From the IMG/VR virus record IMGVR_UViG_3300022746_000001: DNA of 64,000 nt; one strand, given 5' to 3'. A model generated the notes under the pieces. That model did not search any database. It was not told where the DNA came from and saw only the letters and a list, made by a program, of their open reading frames with translations. A program made the position numbers and the translations under genes. The stretch is from a virus. Taxonomy: Duplodnaviria > Heunggongvirae > Uroviricota > Caudoviricetes. Shown piece after piece: positions 22,479 to 57,830 of this stretch; position 1 is the stretch's first letter, and each line of letters starts with the position of its first letter.

Positions 22479-22835
22479 TTAGTCCGCTAAAGTTTCTGGC
22501 ACTTCAACTTCGACACCGAACGCCAAGAACACACGTTGAATCATCCAGCTTGCAATTAGCTTGGAACCATTTGAGAGCGTGTAGCCTATCGGGTTGAAAG
22601 GCTCGATTTGCATAGACTTGCAAAGCTGAAGCCAATTAGCTTCAACAATCGGCCCTGCGACAGACCAATCGTTTGCGTAGTCGGGGATGGGAAACGGTTG
22701 GTCGCCCATGAAAGCGTCTACCGTCTCAAGATAGTGGAGACCGTCTTCAGTGAGCGTTAAGCCCTCTGCTTTAGCCACAGCGTAGTTCAACGCTGCACCA
22801 GTCAGGCGTGAGGTCAATACCTTCTTCATTGTCAT
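22479..22835 (-). CDS. hypothetical protein
   Basis: AAAGGA RBS. Confidence 0.5.
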   Translation of the reverse strand: MTMKKVLTSRLTGAALNYAVAKAEGLTLTEDGLHYLETVDAFMGDQPFPIPDYANDWSVAGPIVEANWLQLCKSMQIEPFNPIGYTLSNGSKLIASWMIQRVFLAFGVEVEVPETLAD

Positions 22836-23374
22836 ACCAGTCCTTTCGGTTTATAAAAGCCACGAGCAACGCCTTTGAAGAAGCAGTTCATCATGACGGA
22901 AGTGTCGTAATCAGCCGAGTGAGCAGCGCCTTCGTCGTAGCTGACGCCAAGCGAGAAGCAAAGCTCACCGAGTTTGGGGAACTTGCCGTTAGGTGTAGCC
23001 CAACGAGCGTTCTCCATCGTGCAAAATATGTTCAGCTCAGGCAGCGTGAGACCAGCGTCCAGCAGCTCTGAAGCGATGAATGGGGCATCGAACCCTGCGT
23101 TATGAATCACAACGAGGTCAGACGACGCCAAAATGCGGTGTACGTCAGATGCTATGTCTGCGAACTTGGCGCACCCTGCAACGTCGGTATAGACGATGCC
23201 GTGAGCGTCAGAAGCGCCTGGGTCGATAGAGCGTTCAGGGTCAACCCGTTTGACGAACTCCTCGATGGGCTTTTTGGTATCACTGTCAAAGCTCAGGAGC
23301 GCAATCTCAATGATGCGGTGGCCTTTAGACAAGTCCAAGCCTGTGGTTTCAAGGTCAAGACCCGTAATTCGCAT
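22832..23374 (-). CDS. DnaQ-like 3'-5' exonuclease (DEDDh)
   Basis: GLDLETTGLD (exo I), HNAGFD (exo II), HSADYD (exo III); AAGGAGG RBS. Confidence 0.7.
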   Translation of the reverse strand: MRITGLDLETTGLDLSKGHRIIEIALLSFDSDTKKPIEEFVKRVDPERSIDPGASDAHGIVYTDVAGCAKFADIASDVHRILASSDLVVIHNAGFDAPFIASELLDAGLTLPELNIFCTMENARWATPNGKFPKLGELCFSLGVSYDEGAAHSADYDTSVMMNCFFKGVARGFYKPKGLV

Positions 23375-23570
23375 TGACTGCCTCCTTTTTAAATTCACGC
23401 AAGCGGTAGCCATCTTTAGGTTCGACGTGCCAGTAGTGAGCGCAACCGCCCTCTTCCACTGGCGCGGTCACGAAAAACGACTGACGGAACTCATTTGGTA
23501 TGGCGCGGTGGCGATAGCAGGTCTCTGCTTGCTCGCACCCTTTACCGTCGCACATGGATATATCTGGCAT
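23355..23570 (-). CDS. hypothetical Cys-containing protein
   Basis: AAAGGAG RBS. Confidence 0.45.
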   Translation of the reverse strand: MPDISMCDGKGCEQAETCYRHRAIPNEFRQSFFVTAPVEEGGCAHYWHVEPKDGYRLREFKKEAVNANYGS

Positions 23571-23663: not shown

Positions 23664-24446
23664 TTATCGCTGGATATTGAGCATCTTCCCTGACGATGAC
23701 CCATCGAGAATCACCGTACCGCCTCGTTCCGCGAACTTCATGAGGACTTGGTTGTACTCGTGCTGGAGAAAGCCAGGTGTCAGCGTCAGTGCCGTTTGTT
23801 GCGTAGCTTTAGCGTTGGCTTCAGCGACCGCCACGTTCAGCTTTGCAGCCTCAAGCTCTTTCTCTTTCGCCACGACGTTGCGAATGGATTGCTCGATGGT
23901 TTCGTCCGTCTTAACTTGGCGAACGACGACTCGGGTGACTTTGAATGCGCCAGGGTCTGATGCGTCCAGCTTCTTCTGAATCGCCGCCTGAGATAGACCA
24001 GCCAGCTTCTCGCGTTGGGTGTGGATGACCAAGCTATCCATTGTGGAGACAGCGTCCGCGATTTCACTCTCGGAGATGCTTTTGACCAAGATATACATGG
24101 GCCACCAGATGCCTTTGCCATTATTCAAGGACTGACCCGTGCGCTTGACCGACAGATCACGAATGGCGTTGGGGTCAACCGTGTAGTAGACCGTCATGTC
24201 CAACTCTGCCAAAGACAGGTTGTCGTGCGCTTTGGGCTTCAGGTTGTCCAGCGTGACTGGAATCTCTTTAGCCGAATACTCATCGACATGGCCGAACATG
24301 GCGGTGTAGAAGCCAGGCGACTCGATCTTCTTGTTGACCTCGCCATTGAAGTCGGTGCGAACACCGATATTGCCTGTCTCAATGCGGCCGCAAGCGGTCA
24401 ACATTGTGGCAAAGCAGATTACGAAAAGGGTAAATAGTCGTTTCAT
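23664..24446 (-). CDS. SPFH/band-7 (stomatin/prohibitin-like) lipoprotein
   Basis: signal peptide + lipobox LTAC; SPFH-like core; Ala/Glu-rich coiled coil AKEKELEAAKLNVAVAEANAKA. Confidence 0.55.
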   Translation of the reverse strand: MKRLFTLFVICFATMLTACGRIETGNIGVRTDFNGEVNKKIESPGFYTAMFGHVDEYSAKEIPVTLDNLKPKAHDNLSLAELDMTVYYTVDPNAIRDLSVKRTGQSLNNGKGIWWPMYILVKSISESEIADAVSTMDSLVIHTQREKLAGLSQAAIQKKLDASDPGAFKVTRVVVRQVKTDETIEQSIRNVVAKEKELEAAKLNVAVAEANAKATQQTALTLTPGFLQHEYNQVLMKFAERGGTVILDGSSSGKMLNIQR

Positions 24447-24455
24447 GGACTCTCC

Positions 24456-24656
24456 TTAAATTGCGTGTTCGACCGTGAACAGGAACGAGAAAGCCACCAC
24501 GGTCACGACAATGGCTACCAAGATCAGGAACATCCAATTGCCTACCTTACGAGCGACGGCGATCGCTTGCTTGGGGTTCTTCTTGGAGTACCAAATGAGG
24601 AACAACGAACCGAAGAAAATCGGCAAGATGAAAAAGAAGATGACTCGGAAGATCAT
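24456..24656 (-). CDS. small 2-TM membrane protein (NfeD-like partner of SPFH?)
   Basis: hydrophobic; immediately downstream of SPFH gene. Confidence 0.4.
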   Translation of the reverse strand: MIFRVIFFFILPIFFGSLFLIWYSKKNPKQAIAVARKVGNWMFLILVAIVVTVVAFSFLFTVEHAI

Positions 24657-25843
24657 TGGAACTCCGTTGTCTCGCCTTTGCGCAGCAAGTAAGCGTCCGA
24701 AACGCTCTTTGCAATCTTGCGGCCGTACTGAGGGTGTTGAGCCTCAGATGCCGACTTCACTACAACGCCTTCGCGAATCTGGCTGATATAGTTGCGCGTG
24801 ATGGTTGGCTGCACGAGTGTGTTGCCATTGGTGTGTTCGAGGACGACCTCTTTACTGTAGGGGCCGACAAAAAGAACAGGTACGATTGGCACATCCATCT
24901 CTGTAGCGGCCGCGCAGAACTCGTCCCAATGGAACCACTGCTCATTGCCTCGTGTGCCGCAGACAGCGTCAAACATCCGAAAGCCAAGCTGTTCGCGGTC
25001 ATAGGTCAGGTCTTGGACGCCAGCGCCACTGAGCGTCAGTCCATAGACTTCGCCCACCATGAAGTGCGGCTTGTTGACTTCGTTGGCGGCGTCACCGAAG
25101 TATTTCAGCGCCTTCTCAAACAGGTCATGCTTCTTGGCGCACTGGATGTAGAGGTTGGTTTCGTCAGTAAAGTCCAGAACGAAGCCTTGACGACCCATGC
25201 CTTTGCTGGAGATGGTCACACGCCCTTTGTAGTAGCGCTCATTCGCCATTGATTCAGGCACGACACCGATCTGCATGAGCGTTCCATGAATCTTCTCGGT
25301 GATGACAACTGTCTCGCCATCTTCGAACAGTTCAGGGCGCTTCTTCAGGTTCTCGAAGTCGTAGCCGAGCGTTGCTGCCAAATCGACACCAGCGATCTTG
25401 CCAGCCATGTGCGATGGGATGTGCGGCTCCCACTTTGTAATACCTAAAGCCTCAGAAGCATCTTCACCTTCGGCCAAAAGCGCCATGCCCTGATTGCCTT
25501 CATGCTCTTGCGCGACTACCATGATGGAAGTGTCGTTGTAGGGCGTGCCAGGAACCATCAAGCCTTGCGAGACGATGCCACGCAGCTTGATAGCCTTCAC
25601 ACGGTTGCCCACGCTGCCGGCGAGACCACCCTTGCCACGAGTCGAGTCCCACAGTCCCATTTCTTCGAGCAGCCACTGAGGTACGAGCGCTTGCTCAGGG
25701 ATGTAGACGCCAAGATCGCCGTCTTTGAACTGGCCCTTCTTGACGATTGATTGATAGTCGCCAACCCGAGCTATCTCGATGGCGTCTGCGTTCGGATGCG
25801 GTTCGATTTTGACGCGAACCACTTCACAGGCAAATGTACTCAT
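24653..25843 (-). CDS. putative ATP-dependent RNA ligase with N-terminal tRNA-binding OB domain
   Basis: N-terminal EPHPNADAIEIARVGD resembles CsaA/EMAP tRNA-binding fold; candidate nucleotidyltransferase lysine in VITEKIHGT. Confidence 0.5.
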   Translation of the reverse strand: MSTFACEVVRVKIEPHPNADAIEIARVGDYQSIVKKGQFKDGDLGVYIPEQALVPQWLLEEMGLWDSTRGKGGLAGSVGNRVKAIKLRGIVSQGLMVPGTPYNDTSIMVVAQEHEGNQGMALLAEGEDASEALGITKWEPHIPSHMAGKIAGVDLAATLGYDFENLKKRPELFEDGETVVITEKIHGTLMQIGVVPESMANERYYKGRVTISSKGMGRQGFVLDFTDETNLYIQCAKKHDLFEKALKYFGDAANEVNKPHFMVGEVYGLTLSGAGVQDLTYDREQLGFRMFDAVCGTRGNEQWFHWDEFCAAATEMDVPIVPVLFVGPYSKEVVLEHTNGNTLVQPTITRNYISQIREGVVVKSASEAQHPQYGRKIAKSVSDAYLLRKGETTEFQ

Positions 25844-33175: not shown

Positions 33176-33263
33176 TGGCGGAAGCGGTGAGATTCGAACT
33201 CACGGAACCTTGCGGTTCGACTGGGTTCAAGCCAGTTGCCATAGACCACTCGACCACACTTCC
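33176..33263 (-). tRNA. tRNA-Ser (anticodon UGA), CCA encoded
   Basis: long variable arm; anticodon loop CTTGAAC; T-arm GGTTCGAATCTC. Confidence 0.8.
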
Positions 33264-33270
33264 TAAATCT

Positions 33271-33355
33271 TGGTGCCCAGAGTCGGACTCGAACCGACAC
33301 GCCTCGCGGCGACGGCTTCTGAGGCCGTTGCGTCTACCAATTTCACCACCTGGGC
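33271..33355 (-). tRNA. tRNA-Leu (anticodon CAG), CCA encoded
   Basis: anticodon loop CTCAGAA; long variable arm; T-loop GTTCGAGTC. Confidence 0.8.
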
Positions 33356-33356
33356 T

Positions 33357-33432
<76 letters not shown>

Positions 33433-33535
33433 ATCATGAATGAAGGCTTTCGTCCAGCTCGGGATAGGTCGGTAGTTAGCCGTTTCAGTTTCACCCGTCC
33501 CCTGGGAATCGAACCCAGAAGCCTTCATTCATGAT
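33433..33535 (-). other. about 100-nt element with 15-bp terminal inverted repeats containing a tRNA T-arm-like hairpin (tRNA-like fragment / structured RNA / miniature insertion)
   Basis: ATCATGAATGAAGGC ... GCCTTCATTCATGAT flank CTGGGTTCGATTCCCAG (minus strand) and tandem TGAAAC repeats; no complete cloverleaf found. Confidence 0.35.
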
Positions 33536-33610
33536 GGTGCCGCCTTGAGGAATTGAACCCCAGACCTTCTGCTTACAAGGCAGCTGCTCTACCAACTGAG
33601 CTAAGGCGGC
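33535..33610 (-). tRNA. tRNA-Thr (anticodon UGU), CCA encoded
   Basis: GCCGCCTTAGCTCAGTTGGTAGAGC; anticodon loop CTTGTAA; 7-bp acceptor stem. Confidence 0.75.
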
Positions 33611-33614
33611 TTAA

Positions 33615-33691
33615 TGGTCGGAGATGCAGGATTCGAACCTGCGACCCTCTGCTCCCAAAGCAGATGCGCTACCAGACTGCGCTAATCTCCG
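33615..33691 (-). tRNA. tRNA-Pro (anticodon UGG), CCA encoded
   Basis: CGGAGATTAGCGCAGTCTGGTAGCGC; anticodon loop TTTGGGA. Confidence 0.8.
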
Positions 33692-33695
33692 ATAC

Positions 33696-33770
33696 TGGTA
33701 CTCGGTGCGGGAATCGAACCCGCCTTACCGCCGTGAAAGGGCGGTGTCCTAACCGATAGACGAACCGAGC
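33696..33770 (-). tRNA. tRNA-Glu (anticodon UUC), CCA encoded
   Basis: anticodon stem-loop CCGCC-CTTTCAC-GGCGG; T-arm GCGGGTTCGATTCCCGC. Confidence 0.75.
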
Positions 33771-33861
33771 GTTCCATCAAGTCTGTTCTCTCGTGGGTCA
33801 AGCTACTCCTTTGCCGTCAAGAGGCTTGTTTCACCATTCCTCTTAGAGAGGACAGACTTCA

Positions 33862-33937
33862 TGGCTCCCCAGGGTGGGTTCGAACCACCGACACATGGAT
33901 TAACAGTCCATTGCTCTACCAACTGAGCTACTAGGGA
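33862..33937 (-). tRNA. tRNA-Asn (anticodon GUU), CCA encoded
   Basis: TCCCTAGTAGCTCAGTTGGTAGAGC; anticodon loop CTGTTAA. Confidence 0.8.
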
Positions 33938-34034
33938 ATGACGGTGCGTATGGAGTTGTACCCCAGACGTTTGTCGGCTTTTATAGTCCCCACACCTTTA
34001 GGACTACCGTGTCTCTGTTCTTCTTGCAAGAAAC

Positions 34035-34111
34035 TGGTTGCGGGGGCAGGACTCGAACCTGCGACCTCTGGATTATGAGTCCAGCGCTCTAACCTACTGA
34101 GCTACCCCGCT
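34035..34111 (-). tRNA. tRNA-Met (anticodon CAU; elongator or Ile2-type), CCA encoded
   Basis: anticodon loop CTCATAA; A1xA72 unpaired; no GGG/CCC initiator anticodon stem. Confidence 0.7.
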
Positions 34112-51645: not shown

Positions 51646-52836
51646 TTAGCTTCCGAAGATGCGTTGAGCCAAGCCGTCTACAACTTCGCGGTCGATCTTG
51701 GACAACTTGTTGATGAACGACAGAGTCAAGCCCTGACGGAACGAACCGCGCTTGACGCCAATCTTGGCTGCGTAGATCAAAGTACGAGGCGAAATCACAT
51801 CGCTGATCTTTGCGCCGTCATACGCATCACGGACGAGACCTGCGAAGTCCACCAGCTTGTCGGCATCTTCTTTGGTCAAGCCAACTTGATTCTGGAGAAT
51901 CTGCGACTCGGAAGCCTTCTTCATGTACTGCTTGTGGATCACCATGCCGAAGCGGTCATAGTTCGCAGAGTTCTGAAGGTTTGTGCCTTGATACAGACCC
52001 GTCTCGTCGCCCGAACCGTTGGTGTTGCCAGTAGCGCAGAAGCGGAAGTTCGGGTGAGGCTTGATAAGACGATTCTCAGCATCGGCTTCTTTAATCATCA
52101 GTGACTTACCTTCGAGGACAGCCTGATAGACCGATAAGACAGAAGGCAACGCGAAGTCGTATTCGTCAGCGACATACATCCAACCATTTTGCATAGCGAG
52201 TGGAAGTGGGCCAAGTTCGAAGACGGTTTGACCGCCCTTCACCGTCCACTGCCCAACGATGTGTGATTCTTCCGTGTTGACTGTGTGCTGGACGCGAATC
52301 GTGGGTCGGTTAGTACGCGCGCCGATTTGTTCATACAGCTCAGTCTTGCCAGAACCTTTGTGACCCCACACGTAAGACGGAATGTTCAACTCAAGTGCCA
52401 GGATGACGTTTTTCAATTCGTCAATGTCGTACACGTAGTTGTCCGAAGGTGTCGGAACCATGTCGCTGAACTCGCCAGCGGCAAGTACGGAAATTGGAAT
52501 GGCTTCGCCCTTAGAACTCAATGCAGACTTGAGTTTGCCGAGATTGAAGGTTTCGTGAAATGCTTTTTTCATCACACCATTTCGGGGAGCAAGAGCGGCC
52601 ACATTCGTGCCAGCCATCTCCACTTTGGTGGTTGCTGCCGCTGCGGGTGCTGCGGTAGGATTTGTCGCGGCATGTTCCGCGATCTTCTTCTGCGCCAGTT
52701 GAGACAGCAGAGGTGCGTCTGGATAATCCATCGCATACTGCTCAACAGTCATTTCTGGGTGTGCATCCTTCAAGTGCAACTTGATGGCGTGAACATGCGC
52801 TCCACAGATGGCACATGCGATCTTTTCGTCTGACAT
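51646..52836 (-). CDS. cobS: CobS-like AAA+ ATPase (MoxR family)
   Basis: Walker A VWGHKGSGKTE; paired with downstream vWA protein as in phage CobS/CobT pairs. Confidence 0.7.
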   Translation of the reverse strand: MSDEKIACAICGAHVHAIKLHLKDAHPEMTVEQYAMDYPDAPLLSQLAQKKIAEHAATNPTAAPAAAATTKVEMAGTNVAALAPRNGVMKKAFHETFNLGKLKSALSSKGEAIPISVLAAGEFSDMVPTPSDNYVYDIDELKNVILALELNIPSYVWGHKGSGKTELYEQIGARTNRPTIRVQHTVNTEESHIVGQWTVKGGQTVFELGPLPLAMQNGWMYVADEYDFALPSVLSVYQAVLEGKSLMIKEADAENRLIKPHPNFRFCATGNTNGSGDETGLYQGTNLQNSANYDRFGMVIHKQYMKKASESQILQNQVGLTKEDADKLVDFAGLVRDAYDGAKISDVISPRTLIYAAKIGVKRGSFRQGLTLSFINKLSKIDREVVDGLAQRIFGS

Positions 52837-52911
52837 AGGTCTCTCCTTAAAACGTCAAAATTGACAAAACTAAATTTCTCGAACAGTTCAAATGTTAATA
52901 CCTAAATTGCG

Positions 52912-52945
52912 GGGATGCAAGTCACTTGTGACTTACCCTGCAACA
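52912..52945 (-). promoter_or_regulatory. palindromic motif GTAAGTCAC-AA-GTGACTTGCAT upstream of CobS-like gene
   Basis: read directly. Confidence 0.5.
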
Positions 52946-52953
52946 TTGCCAAG

Positions 52954-55089
52954 TTACGCTGCAAGCAAAAGCTGGCGCAACTCTTTAATCACAACGCTTG
53001 GCAACTGCTCCACGTTGTTCAACACAAGACTCTTTGGATAGAACTCGCGAACGGCCTCCGATTGAATGCCGATGCCGATGATCTTTACGCCTGAGTTGGC
53101 AATGTCACGCACCTTCTCGCGCAAGTGGCGACGCAGGTCGGCAGAGTTGCCGGCAGCCGCTGGATAACCGTCCGACAGCACCAGCATGATCTTGCCCTCT
53201 TCGCGACGCGCCATTAGACGACGAGCGGCCACCTCGATAGATTCGCCATCGACGTTACTGCGAAGGATGTTTGTGTTGGGAAGCCAACCGAAGCGCTCCT
53301 TCACGTCTGTAGTCATGCGTTCCTCGTAACCCTTGAGAATCGGCATGTAGATGCCTTCCATACGAGAGAAGCCACGACCCATCTTGCTCTGCTGCTCACG
53401 CATATCCTTCTGAGCGCCGCCAATGTCCTTCGTGGTGAAACAGATTACTTCATTCTTAATGCTCAAACGCTCCAACACGGCTGCCAGCGCATACGCAGCC
53501 TGACAAGCGGTGTGAACCTTCTCACCAGCCATCGAGCCAGAGGCGTCAACGACGAGTTCGACTGCCACATCCTTGCTGGTTGATTCCTGCTTGCGGCTAA
53601 AGACACGGTTATCGTTCACTGCCAGGCGAGACAGGTTTGGTGCGTGGAGACGACCGGAGCGGTGTCCGTGTGATCGGGTGGCGAGAGAACGTGCAGCGAT
53701 GGCGCGCTCAAGGTCTTTCTGCAATGGCGCGACCATGTGTTCCGTCTTCTCTATCAGCTTCTTGGTCATGGCTGCGTTGTAGCCGGAGCCGATTGGTAGC
53801 TTCTCCACAACGTCATAATCTTTCGTGAAGATCAGGTAATCGGCATTCTCCGCAACCGCGCTGGTGGCGTCGCTGATGACTTTGCTCATAGCTTCGTCGT
53901 AGCCGTTAGCACTCTCCTTGTCGAGCGCTTCCCATACTGGCGCAGAGTCGCCAAGCTCAACATCTTCTTCGTCTGAGGCGGTCGCACTTGGGGACGATTC
54001 GTCATCTACAGGGTCGGGTTCAGAAGGCTCCTCTTCCTCTTGCTCTGCGATCTCAGGCTCTGGCTCCGATTCGTCTTCTGATTCTTCAGGTGCTGGCTCT
54101 GGCTCTGATTCGTCTTCAGATTCTTTTTCTTCTGGCTCTTTCTCAGGTTCAGACTTCTCAGGCTTGGACTCTTTTTCTTTCTCGTCTTCTTTCTCGCCAG
54201 GCGCCTCTTCTTCTTTTTCTTCTTTCTCTTTTTCGCCCTTGCCCTTGCCTTTACCCTTTGAAGGAGTCTTTTCTTCTTCGCTTTTTTCTTCTGGCTCTTT
54301 CTCAGGTTTGGTCTTGCCGCTGCCAGAAGACTTGTCTTTTTTGCCAGAGGTTGTCTTGGTGCCGATACCGCCCGACTTGCTAGAACCACCCTTCTCGCTC
54401 TTCTCCTCACCCTTGTCGCCACCTGACGAGCCTTCGCTCATGCGCTTACCAATCTCGGCAGCCAGCTCAAAACATTCTTCGGTAGAGGCGGCAGCTTCGA
54501 TCTTCGGGGCCAAGTCTTTAATGCGTTCATACACAGGGGCGACCGTTGTCCAGTGGTCTTTCATGAACTCTTGGAAGACCATCTGACCCGACATAGCGCG
54601 AATCATTGGAACCATTAGCGATTCGATAACGCCGTTCACGTCACCGGCAGCAGCTTTCTCTTGCAAGCGTGGCTTGACGAACTTGTCCAGGTAGAACTGT
54701 CCAGTAACAGACAGGTTGTGCGCAGAGCCTTGAAAGCGCTTTGCCATGCACTTCTCGATGCGAGGGTCTTCAAGTGCATTAAGCAAGTAACCGATGCGCT
54801 TACCTTGCGCCATCGCCTTGCTCATGACGGTGAACTCGGTAAAGAGGATGTGAGCAACCTCGTGATCCAAGAAGCCTTGAATGGCGTTGCACAGGTCTTC
54901 ACCAGCGTTGTCTGGCAGATATGGCAAGTTGACAACCAGCGGCACACCGCGATGGTCGGCACGAACGTATGCGCTAACACCCTGTTGGGTGACTTTGATG
55001 CCCTTACCGGAGAGCATCTGTGTGATCTTCACGACGGACTCGCGAAGGATAAAAACTCGATCATTCTTCATTGTCGCTCCTTTAGTCAT
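52954..55089 (-). CDS. cobT: CobT-like von Willebrand factor A domain protein with long acidic/Lys-rich low-complexity region
   Basis: vWA MIDAS DASGSMAG; long low-complexity stretch KGKGKGEKEKEEKEEEAPGEKEDEKEKESKPEKSEPEKEPEEKESEDESEPEPAPEE. Confidence 0.7.
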   Translation of the reverse strand: MTKGATMKNDRVFILRESVVKITQMLSGKGIKVTQQGVSAYVRADHRGVPLVVNLPYLPDNAGEDLCNAIQGFLDHEVAHILFTEFTVMSKAMAQGKRIGYLLNALEDPRIEKCMAKRFQGSAHNLSVTGQFYLDKFVKPRLQEKAAAGDVNGVIESLMVPMIRAMSGQMVFQEFMKDHWTTVAPVYERIKDLAPKIEAAASTEECFELAAEIGKRMSEGSSGGDKGEEKSEKGGSSKSGGIGTKTTSGKKDKSSGSGKTKPEKEPEEKSEEEKTPSKGKGKGKGEKEKEEKEEEAPGEKEDEKEKESKPEKSEPEKEPEEKESEDESEPEPAPEESEDESEPEPEIAEQEEEEPSEPDPVDDESSPSATASDEEDVELGDSAPVWEALDKESANGYDEAMSKVISDATSAVAENADYLIFTKDYDVVEKLPIGSGYNAAMTKKLIEKTEHMVAPLQKDLERAIAARSLATRSHGHRSGRLHAPNLSRLAVNDNRVFSRKQESTSKDVAVELVVDASGSMAGEKVHTACQAAYALAAVLERLSIKNEVICFTTKDIGGAQKDMREQQSKMGRGFSRMEGIYMPILKGYEERMTTDVKERFGWLPNTNILRSNVDGESIEVAARRLMARREEGKIMLVLSDGYPAAAGNSADLRRHLREKVRDIANSGVKIIGIGIQSEAVREFYPKSLVLNNVEQLPSVVIKELRQLLLAA

Positions 55090-56122: not shown

Positions 56123-56380
56123 ATGATGATGCGTTTTATAAAGATTGCCGAAGTCGAACAGATTTCAGGATTCAAGAAATCCAAGATTTATTCCATGATC
56201 CAACAGGGCGAGTTTCCTCAACCCGTCAAGATCGGTCGCTCGTCTAATTGGCTACTCTCGGAGCTTGAGGGATGGATAGCCTTGCGCGCCATGCAGCGAA
56301 CCACTCCCACGGTTGAATGGAGTAGTTACAGTTCCCAGAGCGCAGGTCATCCAGATAGTCAGCCCACCCCTGCACCATGA
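56123..56380 (+). CDS. alpA: AlpA-family excisionase-like DNA-binding protein
   Basis: MRFIKIAEVEQISGFKKSKIYSMIQQGEFPQPVKIGRSSNWLLSELEGWI matches AlpA pattern; 3' end overlaps integrase by about 137 nt. Confidence 0.65.
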   Translation: MMMRFIKIAEVEQISGFKKSKIYSMIQQGEFPQPVKIGRSSNWLLSELEGWIALRAMQRTTPTVEWSSYSSQSAGHPDSQPTPAP

Positions 56381-57518
56381 TGCAGCGCTCTTGCCAATAC
56401 TCAGCGCGGTTGTAGGCGCGTTCAACCTTACTCTCCAGCTCGTGCGCTAATTGCTTTTCGACAACTTTGGAATCGAAGCCGCCCTCTTCCAACAAGGTCT
56501 TGGCAGTAGTTCTAAAGCCGTGTGTGGAGTGAATTTCTTTGTAGCCCAGGCGATGCAAGTTCTTCATGAAGGTGGTGTCGCCATAGACGCCACCTCGCGG
56601 ACTTGGGAATACAAGACCTTCCGAGCCTGTGACTGTTTTCAGGTTTTCAAGCATTTCAACTGCTTGCTTGGACAGAGGGCACAGAAAGTCTTTTCTTGCT
56701 TTCATCTGATGCGCCGGTAATGTCCAAGTCGCATTCGGAAGATCAAACTGTTCCCATGATGCGTATCGTAAGTTTTGCGGACGAACGAAGACCAACGCAT
56801 TCAGGCGCAACGCAATCACAGGCAATGTCTGCTCGTCGTTGTCCAGCTTTCGCAATAACTCCCCAAGTTGTTCAGGGACAATGAGTGCAGGAAAGTGACG
56901 CTCTTTATGCTGCGCAAATCCATCGCGCTTTACTCTTGCAATTGGATTGCCTGGAAGTTCGCCGCGATCATAAGCGGCTTCAAATGCTCGATTTAGGAGT
57001 GATCGTACTCGGGTTAGCTTGTAATTCGCACCGCGCTTTTCTACTCTTTCAAGCAAGCTCCGAATGTCATCAGGTGTGATACCGATCGCCTCGCGTTTAC
57101 CGATGAACGGTAGAACGTCTCGCTTCATGGCAATCTCATAGTCGTCGTAGTGAGTGTCGCTCCAATCTTTCTTGTTGCGCTCCATCCACCCGTACAAAAG
57201 TTCCGAGACCGTTTGGTGCTTGGTCACGATCCTCTCGACACGACGAGCCTCGACAGGGTCTTTCCCCAACTGTACTTTTTCCCTAGCTTGCTGTGCCAGG
57301 GTACGAGCCGTACTTAGCGAGACTGCGGGATAGGTTCCGATGGAATAGGTCTTACGTTTTCCATACAGGGAGTAGTTCAAAGTCCAGCTTGCAGAGCCGT
57401 TGGGTCGAACGACTAGGTACAGGTTTTCGCCGTCCGCTATCTTCGTTACTCCACCCTTGTCTCTTGCTTGCTTGAGCCTTGATTCTAAAGACTTTTGGGA
57501 CAACTCATGTAACGCCAT
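56244..57518 (-). CDS. int: tyrosine integrase (P4-type, N-terminal arm-binding domain)
   Basis: GGAGG RBS before ATG 57518; catalytic-region HGFRTT...HEL...RAYNRAEY. Confidence 0.8.
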   Translation of the reverse strand: MALHELSQKSLESRLKQARDKGGVTKIADGENLYLVVRPNGSASWTLNYSLYGKRKTYSIGTYPAVSLSTARTLAQQAREKVQLGKDPVEARRVERIVTKHQTVSELLYGWMERNKKDWSDTHYDDYEIAMKRDVLPFIGKREAIGITPDDIRSLLERVEKRGANYKLTRVRSLLNRAFEAAYDRGELPGNPIARVKRDGFAQHKERHFPALIVPEQLGELLRKLDNDEQTLPVIALRLNALVFVRPQNLRYASWEQFDLPNATWTLPAHQMKARKDFLCPLSKQAVEMLENLKTVTGSEGLVFPSPRGGVYGDTTFMKNLHRLGYKEIHSTHGFRTTAKTLLEEGGFDSKVVEKQLAHELESKVERAYNRAEYWQERCIMVQGWADYLDDLRSGNCNYSIQPWEWFAAWRARLSIPQAPRVAN

Positions 57519-57519
57519 G

Positions 57520-57830
57520 TGGTAACGCCTCCAAACAAATGTGGTAACGGTCTTGAGTGTAGTGACCGATTTCTTAGTTACCACCGGCGTTACCACTTTA
57601 TTTTCTGGAAGTCAGGGGATTGGCATGGAGAGTGGTGGAAAAGAAAAACCCCCAGAACCTAGTGGTGGTGGGGGTTTCGCTTTTGCTGAACACTCTGGCG
57701 GAGGTCAGCGGACTACCAGTTTCAAGCAGGTGCCAAATATTTGGCGGAGACGGAGGGATTCGTACTTCTAGTCTCTATGAGGCTTTCGGGAGGATTCCAA
57801 ATTCGTTACCACCGCCGTTACCACTTGAGT
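57520..57830. repeat. candidate att region with direct GTTACCAC arm-type repeats
   Basis: GTTACCACCGGCGTTACCACTT and GTTACCACCGCCGTTACCACTTGAGTG plus further GTTACCAC/GTGGTAAC copies beside integrase start. Confidence 0.5.
57640..57676 (-). terminator. rho-independent terminator
   Basis: CCCCCA...TGGGGG stem then TTTTTCTTTTCC on minus strand. Confidence 0.55.

Follow-up and report, generated by a model that had tools for sequence, protein, structure and literature searches.

SPFH proteins, a group that includes stomatin, prohibitin, flotillin as well as HflK/C, are known to build membrane cages, and the function of these cages is still debated. The generic architecture of the group has been described as TM-SPFH1-SPFH2-CC1-CC2-CT (PMC12624060). 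In bacteria, SPFH proteins have been tied to membrane-stress tolerance (PMC10434171) and, when they work with NfeD, to the stabilisation of unfolded proteins (PMC13086221).

Virus-encoded SPFH proteins have been noted many times, without explanation. The presence of an SPFH domain in a Vi01-like phage was noted in 2011 (PMC3220722), and SPFH lipoproteins, annotated in Vi01-like phages since that year (PHROG 200), are already known. In the Vi01-like phage Sajous1, the SPFH homologue gp200 was detected at low level by mass spectrometry, with 3 retrievals (PMC10892097). A genome paper terms the role of phage SPFH proteins unclear (PMC13239085), and our literature search found no functional study of them. 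The direct homologues of the locus described here, which lies in a 64,000-nucleotide stretch of phage DNA (the window), are orf126 ('lipoprotein') and orf127A (hypothetical) of Kuttervirus CBA120, the 'SPFH domain/Band 7' protein of PhiSH19/Vi01-like phages, and QRE00104 (SPFH) with QRE00103 (a small two-helix membrane protein, hereafter the hairpin) of Burkholderia phage BCSR5. The CBA120, Vi01-like and BCSR5 homologues share with the window 42-49% full-length identity, the same lipobox and an upstream hairpin of 64-69 aa. In the published records examined, this small protein is either labelled 'hypothetical protein' or left unannotated (Bue1), with no link drawn to the SPFH gene, and it seems to have gone unnoticed.

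The features of the window locus are the following:

24662..24665, minus strand: GGAG ribosome-binding site of the hairpin gene, 5 nt upstream of its ATG (read from the sequence)
24456..24656, minus strand: hairpin gene, 66 aa, the upstream gene of the pair (ORF list and the collection's own gene calls)
24452..24455, minus strand: GGAG ribosome-binding site of the SPFH gene, within the 9-nt spacer after the hairpin stop, TAA GGAGAGTCC ATG (read from the sequence)
23664..24446, minus strand: SPFH (Band 7) lipoprotein gene, 260 aa (ORF, Pfam Band_7, PHROG 200, AF2, Foldseek)
24390..24446, minus strand: lipoprotein signal peptide with lipobox LTAC, residues 1-19, Cys19 being the putative lipidated first mature residue (sequence and conservation)
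23829..24383, minus strand: SPFH1/SPFH2 alpha/beta core, residues 22-206 by Pfam (Pfam, AF2, Foldseek)
23784..23903, minus strand: CC1, a long Ala/Glu/Lys-rich helix, residues 182-221 (AF2; aligns to the stomatin coiled-coil region)
23676..23777, minus strand: CC2 helix 224-240 and C-terminal strands 244-246 and 255-257 (AF2, profile alignment)

Transcription of the minus strand puts the 66-aa gene first, which reverses the order given in the original prediction, where it followed the lipoprotein gene. Its ATG overlaps the stop codon of the upstream RNA-ligase gene (ATGA, 24653-24656), and its own stop lies 9 nt from the SPFH ATG, with the GGAG Shine-Dalgarno inside this interval. These signals, the ATGA overlap, the short spacer and the two GGAG sites, are best explained by a bicistronic arrangement in which the hairpin and SPFH genes would form a translationally coupled membrane module. 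A promoter and terminator scan around the pair gave nothing above shuffled expectation. The base composition of the pair (0.52-0.54) is that of the window as a whole (average 0.518), and there is therefore no sign of recent acquisition. The pair is flanked by RNA ligase and exonuclease genes, and the proposed phage origin of the DNA is borne out by PHROG matches to DNA polymerase, ribonucleotide reductase, SbcC, ligase, primase, a UvsX-like recombinase and RNA ligase. The window phage, of ~112 kb, belongs to a lineage distinct from the Kuttervirus/Vi01-like and BCSR5 carriers, and a nucleotide search of GenBank phages with it returned no match.

The lipoprotein was described in the original prediction as a 260-aa protein with lipobox LTAC, an SPFH-type core and an Ala/Glu-rich coiled coil, and all of these elements were recovered. 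The protein begins with MKRLFTLFVICFATMLTAC followed by GRIETG, and its signal peptide comprises a basic n-region (MKR), the hydrophobic core LFTLFVICFATM and the lipobox L16-T17-A18-C19, as in a bacterial lipoprotein processed by signal peptidase II. Cys19 is kept in at least 90% of the aligned homologues. A strict lipobox, defined as [LVI][ASTVI][GAS]C within ~35 residues of the N-terminus after a basic n-region and a hydrophobic h-region, is found in 80 of 90 homologues, and four more carry near-variants judged by eye. Pfam Band_7 (PF01145) matches residues 22-206, profile positions 3-172 of 176, with E=2.3e-11 and 44.5 bits against a cut-off of 23.6, and it is present in all 90 homologues; PHROG 200 'lipoprotein' matches with E=1.3e-32. 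In the AF2 model (pLDDT 85), SPFH1/SPFH2 is followed by CC1 (helix 182-221, ETIEQSIRNVVAKEKELEAAKLNVAVAEANAKATQQTALT), CC2 and a C-terminal strand, and the lipobox would provide the N-terminal membrane attachment in place of a TM helix. Foldseek aligns this model, over 230-280 columns (E=3e-13 to 3e-9), with the full-length chains of several cage protomers, namely erlin1/2, stomatin, prohibitin, HflK/C and QmcA. The region of CC2 and the C-terminal strands contains a conserved motif, T-V-I-L-D-G-S, and according to the model it would correspond to the cap-forming end of SPFH cages; the profile alignment sets 'kgtvil' against stomatin 'NSTIVF'.

In the sequence-profile alignment, human stomatin (residues 155-256) is matched by SPFH2, the coiled coil and the C-terminal strand, and stomatin is the only significant PDB sequence match. 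An hhalign comparison of the family with E. coli QmcA aligned only a 43-column SPFH2 motif (probability 1.9%). The family is too distant from the characterised bacterial members to be placed in a classical subgroup. When the whole window was translated in six frames and searched with the profile, a single SPFH gene was found, and therefore a homo-oligomer is expected; related loci likewise contain one SPFH gene. We regard this architecture as very probable.

The second protein had been predicted as a 66-aa membrane protein with two helices, and this is what was obtained: two hydrophobic segments in the Kyte-Doolittle profile and AF2 helices at 2-26 and 28-65 (pLDDT 88). It is laid out as M-x-x-R, TM1, the basic loop KKNPKQAIAVARK, TM2 and the acidic tail EHAI. 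Among 30 hairpin orthologues, the mean net charge is +0.9 in the N-tail, +3.5 in the loop and -0.6 in the C-tail; Lys or Arg occurs within the first 6 residues in 27 and an acidic residue within the last 7 in 22, and the tail after TM2 has 0-5 residues. Such charge counts suggest a topology with the basic loop in the cytoplasm and both ends in the periplasm. The window hairpin matched none of the Pfam, PHROG, NCBIfam or PADLOC families, and its orthologous partners match only PHROG 11680 (no known function). As a sequence query, the 66-aa protein found only an identical copy of itself, and for this reason the orthologues were collected by synteny. Where SPFH identity is below 65%, hairpin identity is 0.29-0.31 versus 0.275 for shuffled controls. 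The hairpin sequence is therefore almost unconstrained, which is odd for a specific binding partner. A mirror-tree test of hairpin against SPFH protein gave a Mantel r=0.27 (p=5e-4), an uninformative value, since shared phylogeny alone would yield such a correlation and hairpin identity is near the shuffled baseline. The features of a class II holin were lacking: the hairpin has no charged C-terminal tail, its neighbours in the window are RNA ligase and exonuclease genes rather than endolysin or spanin genes, and the search of holin families gave no significant hit for the hairpin partners. Known defence and exclusion families were also set aside: PADLOC matches neither protein, and the partner lacks an annotated PHROG.

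The pairing itself goes well beyond what chance would give. In 22 of 23 IMG/VR loci, the ORF directly upstream of the SPFH gene encodes a 45-95-aa protein with two TM segments, while an ORF of this type precedes 8 of the 184 other gene starts of these loci (4%); the binomial P is ~2e-29, for loci that are not fully independent. The hairpin is also found upstream of the SPFH gene in CBA120 (orf127A), BCSR5, Bue1 and three further phage-like contigs, so that co-occurrence in other phages, which had been proposed as a check, is confirmed. Its length at the IMG/VR, CBA120, BCSR5 and bacterial loci is 55-70 aa. In bacterial genome contigs, 8 of 9 short-form lipoproteins are accompanied by the hairpin, and the ninth by a frameshifted remnant. 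The hairpin is a genuine conserved partner of the short-form SPFH lipoprotein. Among the long-form relatives, only 3 of 66 score with a hairpin, just one of them convincing; the hairpin accompanies only the short-form clade, and the longer chromosomal relatives stand alone. This SPFH family therefore has no general need of the hairpin, since its long-form members function without it. The pair also occurs in Litorimonas and Acidiferrobacteraceae MAG contigs, where its context is a housekeeping one, and its presence in such ordinary chromosomal surroundings counts against a purely phage-versus-phage function.

The subfamily comprises 262 clusters among 1.84 billion representatives, and its carriers include Kuttervirus, Nezavisimistyvirus, BCSR5, ~110-kb contigs and jumbo-phage contigs. 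Such a sporadic spread over phage lineages with no relation to each other would be compatible with a conflict or exclusion gene too. In Pasteurella, the prophage protein PM0222 is HflK/C-like and is found in OMVs. The tblastn hits of the SPFH protein included no Pasteurella or Mannheimia phage, and PM0222 thus probably belongs to a different SPFH lineage.

To account for these observations, we propose that the hairpin resides in the host inner membrane, where the positive-inside rule would place its basic loop in the cytoplasm and its short ends at the periplasmic face. The second product would be a stomatin-type SPFH protein that is secreted, lipidated at its N-terminus and equipped with every element of the cage architecture (SPFH1, SPFH2, CC1, CC2 and C-terminal strand), and it would most likely form a homo-oligomeric dome at the periplasmic side of the inner membrane. 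Acyl chains, and not a transmembrane helix, would hold this dome, and within the corralled patch, or along its rim, the co-made hairpins may provide the part that spans the membrane. Encoded among early/middle DNA-metabolism genes of large virulent phages, the module would most likely have an auxiliary envelope function, in which it organises or stabilises the inner membrane of the infected cell until programmed lysis, rather than being a phage-specific weapon. The module would be self-contained, given that a few bacterial chromosomes also have this pair. The different parts of this proposal do not deserve the same confidence. That a cage forms and is in physical contact with its partner is slightly favoured; the membrane-maintenance role is put forward tentatively, with chances below even. 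For the proposal as a whole, a periplasm-facing, lipid-anchored SPFH cage with a membrane hairpin as an auxiliary envelope module, we consider the chances to be balanced.

Several other explanations deserve attention; the original prediction itself had suggested superinfection exclusion, membrane remodelling or protease regulation as possible roles. The one that survives best, although we consider it unlikely, is superinfection exclusion, in which the lipid-anchored cage and hairpin would alter the envelope and stop the DNA of later phages, a role analogous to that of T4 Imm/Sp or T5 Llp. It would fit an accessory module of patchy occurrence in unrelated large phages, placed among early/middle-type DNA-metabolism genes and not in a lysis or structural block, and a hairpin partner that evolves fast, like conflict genes. 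Moreover, the CBA120 pair adjoins a gene annotated 'superinfection exclusion', an annotation given without stated basis. However, the chromosomal pairs in housekeeping contexts speak against exclusion, as does the fact that neither PHROG nor PADLOC gave a match to a known protein of exclusion or defence. Nor did the literature search turn up any experiment connecting SPFH proteins with exclusion, the sole paper with both terms only listing neighbouring annotations.

A bolder form of the cage proposal, to which we give a rather low probability, is that of a 'split' SPFH machine. The lipid-anchored subunits would form the periplasmic dome while the coupled hairpins supply in trans the TM fence that is normally present in cis, and phages would use it to seal or protect a patch of inner membrane. 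If true, such a machine could block the entry of competitors' DNA, or protect the membrane against pore-forming effectors of abortive infection or against holins that act too early.

It is also conceivable, but improbable, that the two proteins share only an operon and end up in separate membranes, with the lipoprotein sorted by Lol to the outer membrane and the hairpin acting independently, for example as a holin/antiholin-like lysis-timing factor. In this sense, the E. coli '+2 rule' for inner- versus outer-membrane sorting of lipoproteins (PMC4623201) predicts outer-membrane sorting when Asp is missing at +2, and this would part the lipoprotein from its inner-membrane hairpin. Asp is absent at +2 after the Cys among the 80 lipobox homologues; this residue is Gly in 57 of them and G, Y, F or W in 72. 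Gly, Phe, Trp, Tyr and Pro at +2 were reportedly recognised by Seydel and colleagues in 1999 as alternative inner-membrane retention residues. Lysis-related signals are also found in some relatives, namely an Ackermannviridae 'Rz-like spanin' gene 0.5-2.4 kb upstream and a weak Phage_holin_3_3 hit (E=0.03) in 1 of 24 partners. Nevertheless, adjacency is kept across phage and bacterial contexts without nearby lysis genes, RNA ligase and exonuclease being the flanking genes in the window, and the hairpin does not have the charged C-terminal tail typical of holins. A flexible linker after the lipoprotein Cys aids Lol trafficking (PMC11784454), whereas in the model of the SPFH lipoprotein the first strand begins at the putative lipidated Cys and there is consequently no tether. 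Furthermore, some relatives of the same family have an N-in signal anchor instead of a lipobox (P0055, P0085-87 and many long-form loci), which fixes their SPFH domain on the periplasmic side and means that an inner-membrane location occurs in the family. The missing tether and these TM-anchored paralogues together suggest an inner-membrane location for the window protein.

Even less probable is that the phage cage mimics HflK/C, capturing or modulating host FtsH from the periplasm and thereby altering the turnover of membrane or regulatory proteins. Phage genome papers offer this explanation more often than any other (proposed in PMC10269572 and PMC8540360), and several homologues are named 'regulator of protease activity HflC' by JGI. 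The fold does match that of HflK/C in the FtsH complex (7wi3, 9cz2), and the protein is predicted to face the periplasm as HflK/C does. On the contrary, identity to HflK/C is 13-17%, stomatin is the sole significant PDB sequence match, there is no TM helix for packing against FtsH, and the carriers are large phages of virulent type, in which no lysogeny decision is evident. Nor does the window encode the two paralogous SPFH subunits of HflK/HflC proper, since it has one SPFH gene only.

Finally, the original prediction had called the hairpin 'NfeD-like' and likened the locus to bacterial SPFH-NfeD operons, with profile searches against Band_7 and NfeD as the check. The Band_7 profile was matched; the NfeD profile was not. 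What stands from this likeness is that the SPFH gene shares its operon with the gene of a small membrane protein, a feature common to NfeD systems that does not define the NfeD family; membership in that family does not stand. NfeD-first gene order occurs in PH1510/PH1511 and yuaF-floT. The idea of a degenerate SPFH-NfeD operon, whose hairpin would be an NfeD that kept its TM part and acts like YbbJ or YuaF, agrees with that order, with the stomatin-type SPFH gene and with two N-terminal-like TM helices as in short NfeD proteins, but is very improbable given that PF01957 had no hit at E<=1 in the window hairpin or in any of 24 orthologous partners, that hhalign against E. coli YbbJ gave a probability of 0.13%, that no longer homologue carrying an NfeD domain was found, and that the OB-fold domain which defines NfeD cannot be present in an all-helical model ending 0-5 residues after the second helix.

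As regards its significance, the analysis defines a compact, discrete subfamily in which an SPFH protein, predicted to be lipid-anchored, is joined to a minimal, non-NfeD two-helix partner. A self-contained module of two genes is convenient for experiments, and it is available in culturable phages, namely CBA120, other Kuttervirus and BCSR5. It could reveal the contribution of a TM partner to an SPFH cage, and why large virulent phages go to the expense of having one. A modest gain for annotation is that unnamed small ORFs, some of which are uncalled as in Bue1, can be linked to the SPFH gene. Caution is also advised with the 'HflC/lysogeny' inference that appears in some phage-safety assessments.

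Compared with the known systems, the closest in gene content are the operons QmcA-YbbJ (PDB 8z5g), PH1511-PH1510 and FloA/FloT-NfeD, which likewise encode a stomatin-type SPFH protein and a small membrane protein. The full cage-protomer architecture, predicted for the window, is common to both, whereas the phage partner has no OB-fold, NfeD or ClpP domain, and the QmcA-YbbJ cage protrudes into the cytoplasm (PMC13086221) while the phage protein is predicted to be lipid-anchored and periplasmic. HflK/HflC-FtsH resembles the window protein, as predicted, in its periplasm-facing SPFH dome at the inner membrane and in its overall fold. It differs in that two paralogues with TM helices form a hetero-oligomer around FtsH, whereas the phage protein is the product of a single gene and has a predicted lipid anchor. 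The flotillins FLOT1/2 offer a parallel for the anchoring proposed here: their SPFH cage sits on one leaflet through lipid modification and the hydrophobic SPFH1 face, without a TM helix (PMC12624060), although these proteins are eukaryotic, cytosolic and palmitoylated/myristoylated, their coiled coil is much longer, and no hairpin is encoded with them. In Bacillus subtilis, the SPFH protein YdjI/SamI is recruited by the non-NfeD membrane proteins YdjG/YdjH (SamG/SamH) of the same operon in connection with membrane stress (PMC8581546; bioRxiv 10.64898/2026.02.06.704340); there, unlike in the window, the SPFH protein resides in the cytosol, its partners are larger and of an unrelated kind, and the operon is part of the psp system. 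The long-form relatives of Burkholderiales, Rhodocyclales and Steroidobacterales (279-300 aa) are members of the same SPFH subfamily, with 39-45% identity, and are periplasmic, about half of them being lipoproteins. They depart from the window protein in a coiled coil ~11-15 residues longer and in standing alone in housekeeping contexts, without the hairpin that characterises the short-form pair.

The SPFH gene of the window and the small gene that precedes it are best interpreted as a self-contained two-component membrane module, in which the SPFH protein would form a lipid-anchored, periplasm-facing, homo-oligomeric dome and the hairpin, a 66-aa two-helix protein predicted for the inner membrane, would be co-translated with it. 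Both ORFs of the original prediction, which described an SPFH lipoprotein with an NfeD-like membrane partner, were found, each on the minus strand, among the following neighbours:

23355-23570, minus strand: 71-aa Cys-rich ORF (PHROG 20586, function not known)
23664..24446, minus strand: SPFH lipoprotein gene, 260 aa
24456..24656, minus strand: hairpin gene, 66 aa
24653-25843, minus strand: RNA ligase with a PHA02142-type N-terminal OB-fold domain (Pfam PF09414 and PF21189)

The 66-aa gene is upstream in the transcription order and the 260-aa gene second. The hairpin ATG overlaps the stop codon of the upstream RNA ligase (ATGA), the hairpin stop codon and the ATG of the SPFH gene are separated by GGAGAGTCC, and a GGAG site lies 5 nt ahead of each of the two genes. 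Judged from the sequence, the overlap, the short spacer and the GGAG sites are arranged as in an operon with translational coupling. In base composition the two genes agree with the rest of the window, in which no second SPFH gene was found. Immediately downstream of it, the 71-aa Cys-rich ORF, also gene-called in a near-identical contig, overlaps the start of a DnaQ-like exonuclease gene (22832-23413).

The membrane partner is conserved: a two-TM ORF of 55-70 aa lies directly upstream of the SPFH gene, on the same strand, in 22/23 assessable IMG/VR loci (SPFH identity from 35 to 82%), while two-TM ORFs precede 8/184 of the remaining gene starts there (binomial P ~2e-29, the loci being related). 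The only viral locus lacking it, L026, encodes an SPFH protein that is TM-anchored and has no lipobox. The upstream ORF is also present in three further phage-like contigs, in Burkholderia phage BCSR5, in Escherichia phage CBA120 (orf127A, annotated as "hypothetical") and in Erwinia phage vB_EamM-Bue1 (NC_048702.1; locus L003, 3807-4001), where the 64-aa hairpin ORF overlaps the lipoprotein start by one base and lacks annotation in the RefSeq record. The hairpin is thus a real partner of the SPFH gene. Two local peculiarities were seen: in BCSR5 (locus L001, 3897-3969) the two genes are separated by an inserted tRNA-Ala gene, which breaks the tight coupling seen elsewhere, and in Bue1 three unannotated ORFs fill the space from the "Rz-like spanin" gene to the lipoprotein.

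The 66-aa protein consists of two hydrophobic helices with a basic loop (KKNPKQAIAVARK) between them; the AF2 model places the helices at 2-26 and 28-65 and is free of beta structure. Pfam, PHROGs, NCBIfam and PADLOC gave no significant match, and the search for sequence homologues returned only an identical copy, encoded on a 112,395-bp metagenomic contig. A common layout is shared by 30 orthologues: Lys/Arg within the first six residues (27/30), a loop whose net charge averages +3.5, and an acidic residue among the last seven (22/30). According to the positive-inside rule, the loop would be cytoplasmic and both ends periplasmic. Layout aside, the sequence is almost unconstrained (identity 0.29-0.31 versus 0.275 for shuffled sequences, where SPFH identity is <65%).

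The 260-aa protein begins with a lipoprotein signal (MKRLFTLFVICFATMLTAC|GRIETG; lipobox LTAC) and matches Pfam Band_7 above the gathering threshold (E=2.3e-11), which bears out its prediction as an SPFH lipoprotein; it also matches PHROG 200 "lipoprotein" (E=1.3e-32). Its AlphaFold2 model, built on 41 homologues (mean pLDDT 85), comprises a beta-rich core whose first residue is the lipobox Cys (predicted to be lipidated), an Ala/Glu/Lys-rich helix of 40 residues (182-221), a second helix (224-240) and short C-terminal strands. In Foldseek the whole chain aligns with cryo-EM protomers of erlin1/2, stomatin, prohibitin, HflK/C, QmcA and flotillin (E from 3e-13 to 6e-8), and in the family profile residues 152-250 align to human stomatin, including its C-terminal "TIVF"-type strand (E=1.5e-3). 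The lipobox Cys is kept in at least 90% of the aligned homologues.

The family is small, with 262 clusters (E<=1e-3) among 1.84 billion representatives in an exhaustive HMMER search. The SPFH protein occurs in 177 GenBank phage records, mostly Kuttervirus at ~42% identity, the best match being BCSR5 (49%). Scanning a single genome for each bacterial species gave 187 relatives. Among the best 80 of these, the long-form proteins (279-300 aa, anchored as lipoproteins or by a TM helix) have a coiled coil ~11-15 residues longer and are encoded by chromosomal genes that stand alone, in Burkholderiales, Rhodocyclales, Steroidobacterales and others. The hairpin was scored at 3/66 of these long-form relatives, convincingly in one alone, and at 8/9 short-form lipoproteins; the partnership is specific to the short-form clade. 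The ninth short-form gene is preceded by a frameshifted remnant: on an Algimonas MAG contig (locus L048, 2886-3023) the hairpin ORF upstream of the lipoprotein is apparently frameshifted, either as a pseudogene or by assembly error. Since two short-form pairs lie amid genes of ordinary metabolism (Cys/Met PLP enzyme, NDUFS4, cytochrome c, Fur, sulfate permease), the pair is a unit that exists in cells too and not a phage invention.

The window, part of a large phage genome, has a GC content of 51.8%, with most ORFs on the minus strand in a crude greedy ORF map. Its PHROG matches include DNA polymerase, ribonucleotide reductase, SbcC-like nuclease, ATP-dependent ligase, primase, UvsX-like recombinase and helicase, and no nucleotide-level similarity to it was found among GenBank phages. 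Other features are:

33176-34111, minus strand: cluster of eight tRNA genes (Ser-TGA, Leu-CAG, Trp, Thr-TGT, Pro-TGG, Glu, Asn, Met)
51646-55089, minus strand: CobS-like AAA ATPase (PHROG 249 "porphyrin biosynthesis") adjoining a 711-aa CobT-like protein
56244-57596, minus strand: 450-aa protein (PHROG 1 "integrase", E=1e-51)

In transcription order the tRNA cluster directly follows the ribonucleotide reductase gene. The CobT-like protein matches PHROG 1576 and, more weakly, cobaltochelatase CobT; such neighbours are found in many large phages. The "integrase" lies within the replication-gene block of a phage that otherwise looks large and virulent-type; instead of serving lysogeny, it could be the recombinase of a homing or mobile element. 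A 112,962-bp contig from the isolate assembly of Massilia sp. TN1-12 (JBJCIU010000006; loci L036/L028) has, in the stretches examined, phage-like content (RNR, ThyX, RNase_T and the hairpin-SPFH pair) in the window's local order. The contig probably stems from a member of the window's phage group, either a phage co-assembled with the isolate or an extrachromosomal prophage, and suggests an Oxalobacteraceae host range for that group.

The favoured role is that the pair may organise or stabilise the infected cell's membrane, an auxiliary function of a host-like kind, because the same pair is found in housekeeping chromosomal contexts and because SPFH proteins of bacteria have been linked to tolerance of membrane stress (PMC10434171) and to protein stabilisation (PMC13086221). 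Superinfection exclusion by the pair is a rival to this role, as is an HflK/C-like effect on FtsH; genome papers have guessed at an HflK/C-like effect of phage SPFH proteins on lysogeny (PMC10269572, PMC8540360). Separate functions of lipoprotein and hairpin in different membranes are a further rival, and membrane location is the weakest structural point of the module. The +2 residue of the lipoprotein is never Asp (Gly in 57/80), so the E. coli rule predicts outer-membrane sorting (PMC4623201). On the other side, a flexible tether helps Lol trafficking (PMC11784454), and the absence of such a tether, together with TM-anchored paralogues in the family, argues for the inner membrane. A few relatives carry an N-in signal-anchor helix where others have the lipobox, which puts the SPFH domain on the non-cytoplasmic side and shows that inner-membrane location occurs within the family.

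A degenerate NfeD is the only rival that is excluded: PF01957 matched 0/24 syntenic hairpin orthologues, hhalign against E. coli YbbJ gave a probability of 0.13%, and the OB-fold that defines NfeD cannot fit, since the chain stops 0-5 residues past the second helix. The original prediction thus stands for the lipoprotein and its conserved membrane partner, and fails for the NfeD identity.

Direct homologues of the lipoprotein were already annotated in known phages. An SPFH domain was tabulated for a Vi01-like phage protein in 2011 (PMC3220722), some GenBank records use the name "SPFH domain band 7 family protein", and viral SPFH models, of phages as well as giant viruses, are numerous in BFVD. 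Mass spectrometry of the Vi01-like phage Sajous1 detected the SPFH protein at low level (3 retrievals; PMC10892097), and a genome paper noting a phage SPFH gene called the role unclear (PMC13239085). The literature search found no functional study of phage SPFH proteins and no mention of the hairpin partner. The pair adds a variant to the known SPFH operons, one with a predicted lipid anchor and, as partner, a minimal hairpin that is not NfeD. It is a clean system, and a tractable one, in which to ask how an SPFH cage and its transmembrane partner act in phage infection. Cage-forming SPFH proteins follow the plan TM-SPFH1-SPFH2-CC1-CC2-CT (PMC12624060); the 260-aa protein has the same plan, except that a predicted lipid anchor replaces the TM helix.
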